A stretch of 64,000 bases of DNA, taken from contig JBEKFP010000001.1 of assembly GCA_050013255.1 (NCBI GenBank), positions 224,001 through 288,000 of the forward strand, given 5' to 3'. The translations under genes were made by a program, and so were the position numbers. The first letter of the stretch is position 1; each line of letters opens with the position of its first letter. Positions 9,150 through 16,437 of this stretch are shown one piece after another. The notes beneath the pieces were generated by a model. It was not told the DNA's origin. It ran no database searches and saw only the letters and a list, made by a program, of their open reading frames with translations. The stretch comes from Candidatus Bathyarchaeia archaeon (GTDB lineage: Archaea; Thermoproteota; Bathyarchaeia; 40CM-2-53-6).

Positions 9150-9165
9150 TATAACCTCCGTCATA
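9150..9165. promoter_or_regulatory. Palindromic operator TATAAC-N4-GTCATA overlapping the TATA box of the HTH regulator gene
   Basis: One mismatch to TATGAC-N4-GTCATA; the same motif precedes sufC and sufB. Confidence 0.6.
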
Positions 9166-9174
9166 CTCGGAGTA

Positions 9175-9570
9175 GTGAATTTCAAAATGCCTATGATACT
9201 CCCCGAAGAGTTAGCTTCGAAATCCGTCATCCCAGCCATTAGAGCGCTCATCGTCAAGAGGCTGGTTGAAGATCACGGGATGACACAACAACAAGCGGCT
9301 AAACTTCTAGGAGTTACGCAACCCGCAGTGAGTAAATACCTCCATGAGAAACGAGGTGCCGCGATAAGGCTCACTGGCATAAGGCAAATCGACCAAGCAA
9401 CCACGGAAATCGCCGAATTGGTCTCCACCCAGAAAGCACAACCGATCGAAGTCATGAGCAGAATCGAGGCTGCGTGCGAATACGTTCGCAGAAATAGATA
9501 CATGTGTGACCTTCACAAGAAGTTGGAACCAGGCATGGACATAGATTCCTGCCACGTATGTGAACAATAG
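9175..9570 (+). CDS. XRE-type HTH regulator (COG2522-like) with a C-terminal CxxH...CxxC metal/Fe-S motif
   Basis: HGMTQQQAAKLLGVTQPAVSKY HTH; CDLH-x11-CHVC tail. Confidence 0.85.
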   Translation: MNFKMPMILPEELASKSVIPAIRALIVKRLVEDHGMTQQQAAKLLGVTQPAVSKYLHEKRGAAIRLTGIRQIDQATTEIAELVSTQKAQPIEVMSRIEAACEYVRRNRYMCDLHKKLEPGMDIDSCHVCEQ

Positions 9571-10189: not shown

Positions 10190-10708
10190 GTGAGTCAAGA
10201 AACACTGCAGGACTTCGCTGGGATTTGGATTGGAAAGATCAGCGAAGTCGTTAGAACGATAGTTGGTTCAGGCCCGATCAAGTACTTGATCAACTGGAGC
10301 CGAATGTATGCGCTGTGGCCAGTGCACATTACCACAGCTTGTTGCAGCGCAGAGTTTGGCGCAATGATGGGCCCTCGGCTCGACCCTGAAAGGTTTGGTT
10401 TACAGGCGGTTGCGGGAGGCCTTCGGCAATGCGACCTGATCATTGTGGAAGGTACCGTTACAAAGAAAATGGCCAAGCGCCTCAAAATTGTTTACGAGCA
10501 GATGGCCAAGCCAAGGTATGTAATTGCAATGGGGGACTGCGCTTGTTCTGGGGGCCTCTTTCATGATTCATACAGCATCGTAAATGACGTGCACAAACTA
10601 TTCCCAGTAGATGTGTACGTGCCGGGATGCCCACCTAGGCCCGAAGCACTCCTCAGCGCTATCGTGAAACTACGGGAGAAAATACGGAGAGAAGAGGTCT
10701 TCGCCTAG
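10190..10708 (+). CDS. nuoB: Complex I-like oxidoreductase subunit B
   Basis: TACCSAE, MGDCACSGG, VPGCPPRPE motifs. Confidence 0.93.
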   Translation: MSQETLQDFAGIWIGKISEVVRTIVGSGPIKYLINWSRMYALWPVHITTACCSAEFGAMMGPRLDPERFGLQAVAGGLRQCDLIIVEGTVTKKMAKRLKIVYEQMAKPRYVIAMGDCACSGGLFHDSYSIVNDVHKLFPVDVYVPGCPPRPEALLSAIVKLREKIRREEVFA

Positions 10709-11202
10709 TGGCCCAAGTCGCGCTTCCCCGAGAGGAAGAAATAATCAATCAACTGAAAAGCCAATTTCCGGAAGCGATCAAAGAAACCAAGGTCGACCGA
10801 GCGCGGCGCGTAACCATCACCTTTGACAAGGACCATCTCCTGGAAATTGCAACATTCATGCGCGACCAAGCTGGCTTCGACCACGTAAAAGGAATTGCAG
10901 GCATCGACTACCCACCCCACAAGAAGATAGAGGTCCTATATTTCACGGCCTCATTCTCGAAACCAGACATTCAAGATCTTGTCGTTATTCTGAAAACAGA
11001 ATTACCCCGGGATAACCCATCGATCGCCTCCGTCGTTTCTGTGTGGCAAAGCGCGCATTTCCACGAACGGGAAACATTCGAAATGTTCGGGGTAAAATTC
11101 GAGGGGCACCCTGACCTAAGAAAACTACTCACGTTGGACAATTGGGATGGACCACCCCCGATGTTAAAGGATATTAAATTCCCTGAGATGGGCCAACGAT
11201 GA
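10708..11202 (+). CDS. nuoC: Complex I-like oxidoreductase subunit C
   Basis: ERETFEMFGVKFEGHPDLR motif. Confidence 0.92.
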   Translation: MAQVALPREEEIINQLKSQFPEAIKETKVDRARRVTITFDKDHLLEIATFMRDQAGFDHVKGIAGIDYPPHKKIEVLYFTASFSKPDIQDLVVILKTELPRDNPSIASVVSVWQSAHFHERETFEMFGVKFEGHPDLRKLLTLDNWDGPPPMLKDIKFPEMGQR

Positions 11203-12347
11203 CAACACCCCCAGCTGAGACAAAGCCTCCAGCCCCTCCCATCACGATCACTAAGACTGCAGAACCGTCAACCCTGGACGTATCCGTTGGGCCCCAACAC
11301 CCAGGATCCGGACATTTACGAATGCTCATCCGAGTCGACGGCGACTACATCGTATCCGTAGACCTCGACATAGGCTATGTTCACCGAGGCTGCGAGAAAA
11401 TCGCCGAGTATCGAAATTACGTGAGTAACATCCCGCATCTTGAGAGACCATGCATCATAGACGCCATCCACCTAAACTGGGGCTACGTGCTCCCCGTTGA
11501 AGAACTCCAAGGCGTCGAAGTCCCCCCTCGTGGCCAATATATCTCAACCATCGCGGCTGAAATGAACCGCATAATGAGCCACCTTTATTGGCTGGCAATC
11601 AACGCCGGAGTCTTCTCTGGGCACACAACAATTTTCATGTGGGCCTTCGGCGACCGGGACCTATTCATAGAACTCGCAGAGATGCTGACAGGTGCACGCT
11701 TAACGTACTCGTTTCTTCCGCCAGGCGGCCCCAGGCGAGATTTGCCCTTTGGATTTGAAGACAAACTCACCAAACTACTCGATTACTTTGAGAAGAGGCT
11801 TGTCGAGTACGACCGAATCTTCTTCAGTAATCCACTCGTCGTCGCCCGCGCTAAGGGAATTGGTGTCCTCAAGCGGCAGGAAGCAATAGAGTTAGGTGTA
11901 GCAGGCCCAGTGCTCCGAGGGTCAGGCGTTAAGTACGATGTTCGAAAGGTCGAACCGTACGGAGCGTACGCGGATCTCGATTTTGAAATTCCGACTTACC
12001 AAGAAGGCGACTCCTATGCTAGGTTCATGGTAAGATTTGACGAGATGAAACAGAGTATCAAGATCCTTCGACAAGCGCTCGAGAAAATTCCGAAAGGGCC
12101 CATCGCTCGAAAAGCTCCGCTTGTCGCGCCTGAAGGTGAAGCAACTGGCCGCGTTGAATCTTCCCGCGGAGAATATGCGGTGATGGTTATGGGCGACAAT
12201 AGCGACAAGCCGTACCGAGTCAAAATCATGAACGCCTCCTTCCGAAACTTAATCGCACTACCCTACCTCATCCGCAACGTGCATGTTGCTGATATGCCAA
12301 TCATCTATGGAAGCTTAGACTACTGGCCCGTCGAGGCGGACAGGTAA
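11199..12347 (+). CDS. nuoD: Complex I-like oxidoreductase subunit D
   Basis: GPQHP..GHLR, GYVHRGCEK, ESSRGE, C-terminal EADR; no NiFe CxxC pairs. Confidence 0.93.
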   Translation: MTTPPAETKPPAPPITITKTAEPSTLDVSVGPQHPGSGHLRMLIRVDGDYIVSVDLDIGYVHRGCEKIAEYRNYVSNIPHLERPCIIDAIHLNWGYVLPVEELQGVEVPPRGQYISTIAAEMNRIMSHLYWLAINAGVFSGHTTIFMWAFGDRDLFIELAEMLTGARLTYSFLPPGGPRRDLPFGFEDKLTKLLDYFEKRLVEYDRIFFSNPLVVARAKGIGVLKRQEAIELGVAGPVLRGSGVKYDVRKVEPYGAYADLDFEIPTYQEGDSYARFMVRFDEMKQSIKILRQALEKIPKGPIARKAPLVAPEGEATGRVESSRGEYAVMVMGDNSDKPYRVKIMNASFRNLIALPYLIRNVHVADMPIIYGSLDYWPVEADR

Positions 12348-12364: not shown

Positions 12365-13960
12365 ATGGTATTCGAGGCAATGTACGAAGGAATCAAACAC
12401 ATCTTCAAACGAACATTCACCTTGAAGTACCCCTACCAGAAAGTTTTGCTCCCGAAAGGGTTCAGAGGCCGACACCAGCTTTACATGGAGAAGTGCACAG
12501 GCTGCGGAATCTGCGCGTGGATCTGCCCCGAGAGATGCATAAGCATGGTCCCAGTCACTGACCAAAAGGAATATCCACAAAACCCCGAGAAAAGATTCCC
12601 ACAGTACTGGTACGCCCGCTGCTGTTTTTGCCATTTCTGCGTGGCCCCGGACACACTGGTCACCACCAACCCATCTGTTAAGCCGATCAGTGAAATCCAA
12701 GTAGGCGACCGCGTCTTAACGCACACTGGCTTGCATCGTAAGGTGCGCCAAGTCTACAAACATGACTACTCGGGAAGACTATACACGATAAGGCCTTTGG
12801 GCGCTCCCTTCCCGCTCAAGGTAACAGAAGACCACCCACTTCTTGTTTCAACCAGAAACGTCGTAAAGAAGGGACGACTTGAGAAACAAGTTCGAGAACC
12901 TTCTTGGAAGACACCGAAGGAGTTGAAAGCTGGAGATTACTTGACCCTCCCGATTATGAAGGAAACTCGAGACATCGACTTCTTCGAGCAGCGGGTTACA
13001 GTCGGACAACCGAGCACCGGCAAACGACTACCTCGGCAACTAAAGCTTCCAGCAAGTCCTGAGCTATTCAGGTTAGTTGGCTACTATCTCGCTGAGGGCT
13101 ATGCTGTAAGAAGAACAGTTGGCTTCTCCTTCGGAGAACATGAAACCGAATACATCAACGACACGATCCGGCTGCTCAAGAAGCTGTTCAATGGTAAGCC
13201 GAAGACGCAGACCATTCACCACTCAACGCATGTTCTACTGCACTCCGTTGTAGCCCTCCAATTCTTCGAGACATTTGGACGCAGCTCAGACGGAAAGAAA
13301 GTACCAGATTGGATGATGTTCGCGCCGGTTAAGAAACAAAGAGAATTGGTGCTAGGCGCATGGCGCGGCGATGGATATCTCCATGAACCAACTAAGGGCA
13401 ATAAATCAACGTTCTTTGAATATGTCACCGTCTCTCGAACCCTAGCATTCCAGCTGCAGCAACTGCTTATGAGAATGAATCTAGTCGGGGAATTGGCAAG
13501 CCCTCAACACAAGAACAGGAAGCGCTCCTATGTCCTCGCAGTTCGTGGCAAGTTCGTCCCGCGGATGGCAGAGCTCATGGGCATCAAGTTCAGAGATGTT
13601 CGCGAAAAGACATTTACTAGATTTGAACTAGATGACAACTACGTGTATGCACCAATTCTAAGAATCTCATCAACCGACGTTACGAACCAGCCTGTGGTCA
13701 ACCTCTCGGTTGAAGGGGACGAATCTTACGTTGCAGGAAATGTCACAGCGCACAATTGTACCGATTATTGTCCGACTGGGGCGTTGGATTATACGCCTGA
13801 TTATGAGTTGGCTGAGTATGATCGTGAGTTACTTCTCTGGAGCCCGGAACGACTCTCGAGGCCGGCAACCAACATTGGCGAGTACCAGTCGGTCTTGCAT
13901 GGCAACAAGGGCAGCATGGGCGTCACGTTTGAGCTCGTAAACAAGCGGAAATCAGGCTGA
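12365..13960 (+). CDS. nuoI: Complex I-like subunit I (2x[4Fe-4S]) precursor interrupted by an intein
   Basis: YP....P..FRG, CTGCGICAWICP; the second CxxCxxCxxxCP is split by a 373-aa insertion; spliced product 158 aa. Confidence 0.92.
   Translation: MVFEAMYEGIKHIFKRTFTLKYPYQKVLLPKGFRGRHQLYMEKCTGCGICAWICPERCISMVPVTDQKEYPQNPEKRFPQYWYARCCFCHFCVAPDTLVTTNPSVKPISEIQVGDRVLTHTGLHRKVRQVYKHDYSGRLYTIRPLGAPFPLKVTEDHPLLVSTRNVVKKGRLEKQVREPSWKTPKELKAGDYLTLPIMKETRDIDFFEQRVTVGQPSTGKRLPRQLKLPASPELFRLVGYYLAEGYAVRRTVGFSFGEHETEYINDTIRLLKKLFNGKPKTQTIHHSTHVLLHSVVALQFFETFGRSSDGKKVPDWMMFAPVKKQRELVLGAWRGDGYLHEPTKGNKSTFFEYVTVSRTLAFQLQQLLMRMNLVGELASPQHKNRKRSYVLAVRGKFVPRMAELMGIKFRDVREKTFTRFELDDNYVYAPILRISSTDVTNQPVVNLSVEGDESYVAGNVTAHNCTDYCPTGALDYTPDYELAEYDRELLLWSPERLSRPATNIGEYQSVLHGNKGSMGVTFELVNKRKSG
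12638..13756 (+). mobile_element. Intein with a LAGLIDADG homing endonuclease
   Basis: Cys1 (CVAPDT), block B TEDHP, LVGYYLAEG and GAWRGDG, block F VVNLSVEGDESYVA, terminal HN followed by +1 Cys. Confidence 0.95.
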
Positions 13961-14118: not shown

Positions 14119-14134
14119 TATTACGTACGTCATA
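14119..14134. promoter_or_regulatory. Operator TATTAC-N4-GTCATA upstream of sufC
   Basis: TATTACGTACGTCATA overlapping a TTTTATTA TATA-like box. Confidence 0.65.
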
Positions 14135-14997: not shown

Positions 14998-15013
14998 TAT
15001 TACGTATGTCATA
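14998..15013. promoter_or_regulatory. Operator TATTAC-N4-GTCATA upstream of sufB
   Basis: TATTACGTATGTCATA in the 46-bp intergenic gap. Confidence 0.65.
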
Positions 15014-15033: not shown

Positions 15034-16437
15034 TTGGCAACTAAGCAAACCCTAGACATCGACTATACCAAGTATAACTTCAGAGACTCCACCGAAGATT
15101 ACGAGTACAAGTTTCCGAAGGGCCTCACACGAGAGGTTGTCGAGAAGATCTCTGCGATAAAGAAGGAACCTGACTGGATGCTCCAGTTTAGGCTGCGTGC
15201 TTACGACCATTTCGTCAAGAGACCGTTGCCCATGTGGGGTGGCGACTTGACCACTCTCAAATTCGATGATATGTTGTATTACGCCAGCCCAACTGAAAAG
15301 AAGAGCCGTTCATGGGAAGACGTGCCTGCGTACATTAAGGATACATTCGATAAGCTGGGCATTCCTGAAGCTGAGAGAAAATTCCTCGGCGGCGTGGGCG
15401 CCCAGTATGAATCCGAAGTTGTATACCACAGCCTTAGAGAAGACCTGGCGAAGAAGGGCATCATTTTCACAGACACCGACACCGCACTCCGAGAGTACCC
15501 GGAAATTTTCAAGAAATATTTCGGAACCGTAATCCCGCCGGAAGATAACAAGTTCGCGGCGTTGAACAGTGCGGTGTGGAGTGGTGGGAGTTTTATCTAC
15601 GTGCCGCCGGGCGTTAACGTCGATGTACCCCTTCAGGCGTACTTTAGAATTAACACGCAAAACATGGGGCAATTCGAGCGAACACTCATCATTGCCGATG
15701 AGAATAGCCGGTTGCATTACATAGAAGGCTGTACGGCCCCAATCTATTCTACCGATTCACTGCACTCAGCCGTGGTCGAGATCATAGCAAGACCAGGCGC
15801 GCACGTACGCTACACGACAATCCAGAATTGGTCTAATGACGTCTACAACCTAGTTACGAAGCGAGCATACGCATATGCTAACGCAACTGTTGAATGGGTT
15901 GACGGAAACCTCGGCAGCAAACTCACAATGAAGTACCCGTCCATCTACCTGCTCGGCCCAGGAGCGAAGGGCGAAATTCTATCAGTAGCCTTCGCCGGCA
16001 AAGGCCAACACCAAGACGCCGGCGGCAAAGTTGTACACCTCGCCCCACACACGACTTCCAGAATCACTTCCAAGTCCGTTTCCAAAGATGGCGGAAGAAC
16101 AACTTACCGAGGCCTACTACACGTCGCTAAGGGAGCTAAGGGGGTCAAGTCGACCGTACGATGCGACGCCCTACTACTTGACGAGTACTCAAGGACCGAC
16201 ACTTACCCATACAACGAGATCAACGAAGACGACGCGACGACAAGCCACGAGGCAACGGTTGGCAAGATCGGAGACGACCAGCTCTTCTATTTAATGTCCC
16301 GCGGACTTTCGGAGCAAGAGGCTCTCAGCATGATCGTCATGGGCTTCATGGAACCATTCACCAAGGAACTGCCGATGGAATATGCCATCGAATTGAACAG
16401 GCTCATCCAAATGGAAATGGCCGGCTCCGTCGGCTAG
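15034..16437 (+). CDS. sufB: Fe-S assembly scaffold SufB
   Basis: [31 protein letters not shown] motifs. Confidence 0.96.

Follow-up and report, generated by a model that had tools for sequence, protein, structure and literature searches.

A predicted class 1 intein with a LAGLIDADG homing endonuclease at a cluster-ligand cysteine of the respiratory subunit NuoI in Bathyarchaeia

Inteins that carry a nested homing endonuclease are known structurally from ATPase or polymerase hosts, where TliVMA and PhoVMA (7qsu, 7qss, 7qst), PI-SceI (1vde), PI-PkoII (2cw7) and PI-PfuI (1dq3) have in common a Hint fold with a nested two-motif LAGLIDADG domain, an initial cysteine (Cys1), the TxxH signature of splicing block B and a terminal His-Asn pair followed by a nucleophilic +1 residue. 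Splicing in archaeal inteins can also be conditional: the MoaA intein of Pyrococcus abyssi is kept from splicing by a native disulfide between Cys(-3) and Cys1, and the Pab PolII intein by one between Cys1 and Cys+1 (PMC3922620; PMC10663303). Here we describe an insert with the same set of shared intein features in nuoI, which encodes an iron-sulfur (Fe-S) subunit of a complex I-like respiratory enzyme, in Candidatus Bathyarchaeia archaeon. The window, meaning the whole stretch of DNA analysed, comprises 64,000 nucleotides (nt) of assembly GCA_050013255.1 (contig JBEKFP010000001.1, 224,001-288,000) and belongs to a genome of 2.46 Mb in 3 contigs with an estimated completeness of 100% and an estimated contamination of 8.55%. 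With a probability that we place at roughly 0.85, the insert is a selfish class 1 intein that moves horizontally and whose LAGLIDADG endonuclease would be active or recently active, and no function for the host is required to account for it.

The nuoI precursor is a single open reading frame (ORF; 12365..13960, +) of 531 amino acids (aa), in which residues 1-91 form the N-terminal host part or N-extein, ending in YARCCFCHF, and residues 92-464 form the 373-aa intein, which begins with CVAPDTLV and finishes with GNVTAHN before the C-extein opens with CTDYCPTGALD. Excision would join the exteins across the junction peptide …CCFCHFCTDYCPTGALDYTPDYELAEYDR into a 158-aa NuoI with both CxxCxxCxxxCP motifs, CTGCGICAWICP and CCFCHFCTDYCP, the second of which has the +1 residue as its third Cys. 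The host was identified as NuoI from the match of TIGR01971 to precursor residues 7-93, several NuoI equivalogs and Fer4 on residues 41-60 (Pfam/NCBIfam), in addition to the two cysteine motifs, a spliced length within the expected range of ~150-180 aa and the presence of nuoB, nuoC and nuoD upstream. Thirty-six intein-free orthologues in the family run gaplessly through CCFCHF/CTDYCP (a slash marks the insertion point), which makes the boundaries exact. The coordinates and junctions given by the initial annotation agree with the ORF translation and the junction DNA, and its proposal that the second motif is completed only by splicing, with the +1 nucleophile as third Cys, was borne out when the exteins were joined. 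Cysteines flank the junctions at positions -6, -5, -3, 1, +1 and +5, the sole Cys of the intein being Cys1 (TGC at 12638). Where a ferredoxin fold contains two clusters, each motif gives its first three Cys to one cluster and its fourth to the other, and because of this exchange neither NuoI cluster has a full ligand set on a single side of the intein.

Domain searches, residue conservation and structural modelling all point to an endonuclease-bearing intein. Pfam matches in the insert were LAGLIDADG_3 (precursor residues 325-406), Hint_2 and Intein_splicing, and NCBIfam returned the intein-containing Tes, GyrA, RpoA'' and PolD models together with an intein N-terminal domain. In an alignment of 100 inteins homologous at this site, referred to below as site b, Cys1, Thr63, His66 and Asn373 were invariant, and the catalytic acidic residues of the two motif helices were kept almost throughout, with Glu153 (LVGYYLAEG) in 96/100 and Asp245 (LGAWRGDG) in 98/100 copies (PF14528, E-value 3e-8). 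An AlphaFold2 model of the intein built on 39 sequences had a predicted local distance difference test (pLDDT) score of 91.9 and a predicted template modelling (pTM) score of 0.89. Its best matches in the PDB by Foldseek were endonuclease-bearing inteins, namely TliVMA (E 9e-23, template modelling [TM] score 0.72), PI-SceI, PhoVMA, PI-PkoII and PI-PfuI (E up to 1e-15, TM ≤0.72), and after these came the free-standing LAGLIDADG enzymes I-DmoI and I-Tsp061I with TM(target) values of 0.56-0.74. The secondary structure of model residues 141-314 fits the twice-repeated alpha-beta-beta-alpha-beta-beta-alpha LAGLIDADG fold, and the only solved structure reached by sequence was PI-PkoII (E 1e-8). Cys1, TxxH, His-Asn followed by Cys+1, the Hint fold and the intein-free orthologues are all as expected for class 1. 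On this combined sequence and model evidence the insert is a genuine class 1 intein predicted to carry a two-motif monomeric LAGLIDADG endonuclease, in keeping with the initial annotation, which had also judged both motifs intact.

The conserved residues and the selection acting on the exteins suggest how the precursor would mature. Once nuoI is translated, Cys1 would convert the Phe(-1)-Cys1 bond to a thioester with the aid of Thr63 and His66 of block B, and the N-extein would then pass to Cys+1, which is to become the third ligand in the second [4Fe-4S] motif. Cyclisation of Asn373, assisted by His372, would free the intein, and an S-to-N shift would remake the peptide bond to give NuoI in which the CCFCHFCTDYCP motif is whole. 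Binding of both clusters and entry into the NuoBCDI module of an 11-subunit complex that lacks NuoF are expected of the spliced protein alone. The distribution of the element and the selection on it are in turn consistent with homing, in which the freed intein would cut empty nuoI across ...TGCCATTTC/TGCACNGATTA... and repair would copy the intein in. A ligand-Cys site would be doubly favoured, as it is unable to mutate away from the endonuclease and also provides the +1 nucleophile.

A protein search returned ~300 homologues, and of the best 122, on which precursor counts are based, ~100 carry an intein at site b. These comprise 63 copies of a Bathyarchaeia type with the junctions CCFCHF/.../CTDYCP and 37 of a Nitrososphaerota/Conexivisphaerales type with CVFCGL/.../CVDACP. 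Intein-free NuoI alleles of 155-165 aa with N-extein identities of up to 92% were also found. The family of the window was sampled with 59 species genomes from genera g1 (the window's genus) to g5, in which ~18 alleles are occupied and ~36 are empty. Occupied and empty alleles number 3 and 18 in g1, 13 and 8 in g2 and 2 and 0 in g3, while all alleles found in g4 (9) and g5 (1) are empty. All 13 complete intein copies from the family genomes are exactly 373 aa long. An even sample of 400 genomes from the phylum added just two more NuoI inteins, and in the class sample strong matches were limited to the window's family.

Occupancy is sporadic among close relatives. The host allele closest to that of the window (G260; 94% extein and 97% NuoD identity) is empty, and the other g1 allele with an intein (G281) is further away, with 90% extein and 94% NuoD identity. 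Among g2 species with identical spliced NuoI three alleles are occupied and two are empty. Parsimony on the extein tree required 9 changes of occupancy, at least 4 of which are forced by well-supported branches. Additionally, inteins of g1 are 68-71% identical to those of g2 and g3, and g2 inteins have a median identity of 71% among themselves, whereas the hosts of g1 and g2/g3 share only 48-53% identity in NuoI exteins, 58-62% in NuoD and 40-46% in NuoC. Six lineages radiate star-like in the intein tree, and the long branch that separates g1 from g2/g3 in the host tree is absent from it.

The ratio of non-synonymous to synonymous substitution (dN/dS) was 0.14 in the endonuclease domain and 0.11 in the splicing regions, and the exteins of occupied alleles gave 0.036. 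Sporadic occupancy, incongruence between intein and host and purifying selection on the endonuclease together mark a selfish homing element, which would thus have moved between species and genera and been lost repeatedly, as is expected of homing. It is a well-preserved and probably active homing intein. As exteins at a dN/dS of 0.036 are accompanied by core splicing residues that are all kept, we infer that nuoI is still in use and that its splicing is required.

Several observations weigh against this reading or limit it. Position 4 of block F is Asn355, which aligns with the Asp of 'VYDLSVE' in PI-PkoII, and Asn stands at this position in all 63 Bathyarchaeia-type copies. The block F Asp assists the first splicing step and is common to most, though not all, class 1 inteins; with Cys1 in place and no WCT triplet, its replacement by Asn does not make this a class 2 or 3 element. 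The counts of occupied and empty alleles overstate the number of independent events, since the genomes are kin. Identity at four-fold sites is ~0.30 for intein and exteins alike and is saturated, so that dating of the transfer from synonymous sites was uninformative and was dropped, which leaves a recent transfer undatable. Lastly, a secondary effect of conditional splicing would be compatible with a selfish origin.

Alternatively, the intein may have been recruited to sense redox state or iron/Fe-S, keeping NuoI in an inactive precursor form. Splicing would then be blocked by a disulfide from Cys1 to either Cys(-3) or Cys+1, or through binding of a metal or cluster by Cys(-6), Cys(-3) and Cys1, and would be released under reducing conditions or with an adequate Fe-S supply, thereby gating assembly of the respiratory complex. 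The cysteines of the precursor do offer C(-3)-x-x-C1 and Cys1-Cys+1 arrangements, the host protein is of the oxygen-sensitive Fe-S kind and comes from an anaerobe lineage, and inhibition of Cys-dependent inteins by Zn is established (PMC10663303). This cysteine pattern, however, arises automatically wherever a Cys1 intein precedes the third Cys of a CxxCxxC motif, and the intein is absent from most close relatives including the nearest, transfers between genera and maintains an endonuclease that a domesticated sensor would not need. Adjacency to suf genes, which the initial annotation had offered as a cue to such a role, was rejected as uninformative, given that sufC lies 3' of nuoI in every g1 genome, occupied or empty, and is not found there in intein-carrying g2 and g3. 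In the window sufC begins 230 nt past the nuoI stop and has a promoter-like region of its own, with a TATA-like box and an operator-like palindrome of 16 nt. By analogy with known inteins a redox or iron switch is chemically plausible, and some sensitivity to redox state or metals in vitro would be unsurprising, yet the dedicated switch for complex I that had been suggested is unsupported in view of the sporadic element, its empty nearest allele, the star-like intein tree and the purifying selection on the endonuclease, and we regard it as unlikely. If it were true, a complex I-like enzyme would be assembled only when Fe-S clusters survive, a selfish element would have been exapted as a post-translational gate on respiration, and the same logic would extend to related inteins at ligand Cys of IscU and a radical-SAM enzyme, which are described below.

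It could also be argued that the interrupted nuoI is splicing-incompetent and that a second nuo-like cluster supplies the activity. A second complete cluster is indeed present at C1:821-830k, with NuoH-NuoI and an intein-free NuoI paralogue that is 36-37% identical, and the Asn in block F and the interrupted intein reading frames in two relatives (G275 and G197) would fit such a loss of splicing. Such a dead end is nevertheless very improbable, as the precursor has 531 open codons, its core splicing residues are all invariant and the exteins of occupied alleles are strongly constrained. Nor can the paralogous cluster explain this constraint, since genomes whose alleles are empty have it equally, and for the same reason it does not act as a replacement. 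The frameshifted copy of G275 was itself rejected as a decaying intein, since sufC is also broken on that contig and assembly indels are the likely cause. A chimeric join of an intein-bearing gene to nuoI in assembly or binning, which had been raised at the outset as a possible objection, could draw on the metagenome-type assembly and its estimated contamination, and is hardly credible when the identical 531-aa protein occurs on 30 independent contigs from four sources (NCBI, JGI, Logan and ENA), ~100 homologous precursors have the same junctions, the frame and motif are exactly reconstituted and the GC content of the intein (0.497) is close to that of the exteins (0.509). We retain the selfish homing intein as the preferred interpretation.

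Nitrososphaerota-type NuoI has a second insertion site (site a) before the first Cys of motif 2, six codons upstream of site b, which is occupied by full inteins of 366-371 aa or by mini-inteins of 162-182 aa. Alleles with a only, b only, both a and b, and mini-a with b were all found, and examples with two sites included three precursors of ~900 aa, two of ~725 aa and one further genomic locus. Inteins at the two sites are 32-35% identical, and as the sites lie only six codons apart each intein should destroy the target of the other. Site-b copies of the Bathyarchaeia type have Asn in block F, Glu362 and a penultimate His (63/63), whereas those of the Nitrososphaerota type have Asp in block F (37/37), His362 and a penultimate Ser (36/37), and site-a inteins share the block F Asn and penultimate His with the Bathyarchaeia site-b inteins. 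This covariation of catalytic residues suggests two mechanistic flavours, and site b may have been colonised by two intein lineages. The tree groups of Bathyarchaeia site-b (bB), Nitrososphaerota site-b (bN) and Nitrososphaerota site-a (aN) inteins are each well supported, with Nitrososphaerota b standing apart, but their mutual order hangs on long outgroup branches, and we make no claim of one or two origins for the site-b inteins of Bathyarchaeia and Nitrososphaerota. One NuoI homologue with a site-b intein had an additional non-intein insertion of ~150 aa between its ferredoxin motifs.

Related inteins were observed in other proteins, and Bathyarchaeia have numerous inteins in metabolic enzymes. 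An IscU/NifU-like scaffold is split at a ligand Cys (VGNPV/C...HN/CGDLM) by a LAGLIDADG intein of 371-372 aa that is ~33% identical to the NuoI intein, at five loci from several families of the same order and one other class. In the window's own genome a radical-SAM enzyme (AmmeMemoRadiSam-like, 711 aa; C1:358394-360529, L015:895-3030, +) carries an intein with the junctions GCNWL/C...VCHN/CSYCQN, where Cys+1 is the second Cys of a CxxxCxxC motif and the endonuclease is apparently not LAGLIDADG_3. The RtcB tRNA ligase of the same genome (1032 aa; C1:110966-114064, L014:366-3464, -) has a 500-aa intein (...GYDIN/C...VVSN/CGVRL). Further related inteins in three other genomes interrupt an archaeal S-adenosylmethionine synthetase (GHPDYI/C...HN/CDAVM), a GHMP-type kinase (GGKV/C...HN/CGAGGGG) and a helicase. 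Genome-wide Pfam scans with LAGLIDADG_3 and Intein_splicing found only the NuoI, RtcB and radical-SAM inteins, and no second copy of the NuoI intein was found within the genome. The inteins at ligand Cys of IscU and the radical-SAM enzyme fit a general preference for immutable Cys codons.

Full-text literature searches, which did not extend to InBase, yielded no paper on inteins in NuoI or NADH dehydrogenase or on these archaeal cases, and the main text of the intein survey by Novikova et al. 2016 mentions neither NADH nor ferredoxin. More than 100 public sequence clusters share the NuoI-intein architecture, which JGI labels 'NuoI/intein/homing endonuclease' and NCBI only 'LAGLIDADG family homing endonuclease'. 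The novelty that had been claimed for NuoI as an intein host thus holds with respect to the literature searched and does not hold for the databases, where such sequences are already public. Overall, the kind of element is known and ordinary, and what is new is its host protein and insertion site. Inteins, known from replication, repair and nucleotide enzymes, thereby gain a core respiratory Fe-S subunit as a host, and Bathyarchaeia and Nitrososphaerota have several inteins at metal-ligand Cys, including the two NuoI sites, IscU and the radical-SAM motif. Because the NCBI label names the endonuclease only, NuoI may look absent in metabolic reconstructions of uncultured archaea. The polymorphic occupied and empty nuoI alleles offer a natural system for the study of archaeal homing, the two neighbouring NuoI sites offer one for interference between inteins, and the Cys(-3)/Cys1/Cys+1 geometry provides a simple test bed for interference between Fe-S assembly and protein splicing.

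Table 1. Coordinates of nuoI, its intein and associated nuo genes (window positions unless a contig is named).
Feature	Position	Strand	Remarks
nuoB	10190-10708	+	upstream of nuoI
nuoC	10708-11202	+	
nuoD	11199-12347	+	directly upstream of nuoI
nuoI N-extein, 91 aa	12365..12637	+	motif 1 CTGCGICAWICP and Cys1/Cys2 of motif 2; ends RCCFCHF
Intein, class 1, 373 aa	12638..13756	+	Cys1...His372-Asn373
N-terminal splicing (Hint) region	12638..12982	+	intein residues 1-115; Hint_2 and TIGR01445 matches
Block B	12824-12835	+	T63-E-D-H66; block A is Cys1
Nested LAGLIDADG endonuclease domain	12983..13627	+	intein residues ~116-330; PF14528
LAGLIDADG motif 1	13064-13102	+	LFRLVGYYLAEGY; intein residues 143-155, Glu153
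LAGLIDADG motif 2	13352-13378	+	LGAWRGDGY; intein residues 239-247, Asp245
C-terminal splicing region	13628..13756	+	intein residues 331-373
Block F	13694-13738	+	VVNLSVEGDESYVAG, with Asn355
Block G	13745-13756	+	TAHN
nuoI C-extein, 67 aa and stop	13757..13960	+	Cys+1 is third and Cys+5 fourth ligand of motif 2
Membrane arm, nuoA-H-J-K and three antiporter-like subunits	C2:212293-219567		on other contig

Positions of the intein, its splicing blocks and the associated nuo genes are listed in Table 1. NuoF (PF01512) was not found in the whole genome, and a complete NADH-oxidising NuoEFG module is therefore not indicated; by analogy with described complexes the enzyme would be of the 11-subunit archaeal type, with an electron donor that is probably not NADH. 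The window contains three copies of a near-palindrome of 16 nt (TATWAC-N4-GTCATA), at 9150-9165, 14119-14134 and 14998-15013, where 0.22 would be expected by chance. The copies precede a small regulator-like ORF (9175-9570), sufC and sufB, and the interposed nuoBCDI genes have no copy of their own. In the g2 and g3 loci the place of sufC is taken, ~190 nt past nuoI, by an ORF of 406-442 aa with two further CxxCxxCxxxCP motifs.

Compared with described systems, the neighbouring sites of Nitrososphaerota-type NuoI resemble those of the Haloferacales inteins MCM-a and MCM-d (PMC10643990), with all occupancy states found in NuoI. The NuoI sites differ from the Haloferacales case in being just six codons apart, and the NuoI of the window is occupied at site b only. 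The intein of Mycobacterium tuberculosis SufB, which the initial annotation had cited, is likewise found in a host from Fe-S metabolism and is Cys-dependent in its splicing, but it differs from the NuoI intein in host protein, site and lineage; no sequence relationship between the two was found in the searches made, and the sufB of the window (15034-16437) is intein-free, with SUFBD domains only in Pfam. As in the Pab MoaA and PolII inteins, the NuoI precursor has Cys at -3, 1 and +1 in the context of an oxygen-sensitive Fe-S enzyme, which makes a blocking disulfide chemically possible, although those inteins are mini-inteins or lineage-fixed and have been studied in vitro, while the NuoI intein is polymorphic, has a conserved endonuclease and is known from sequence. 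The closest resemblance in architecture is to TliVMA, PhoVMA, PI-SceI, PI-PkoII and PI-PfuI, from which the NuoI intein is set apart by a sequence identity of only 12-21%, by the Asn at position 4 of block F, by a compact length without any additional DNA-recognition domain of the size found in PI-SceI or PI-PfuI, and by its host, a respiratory Fe-S subunit in place of an ATPase or polymerase.

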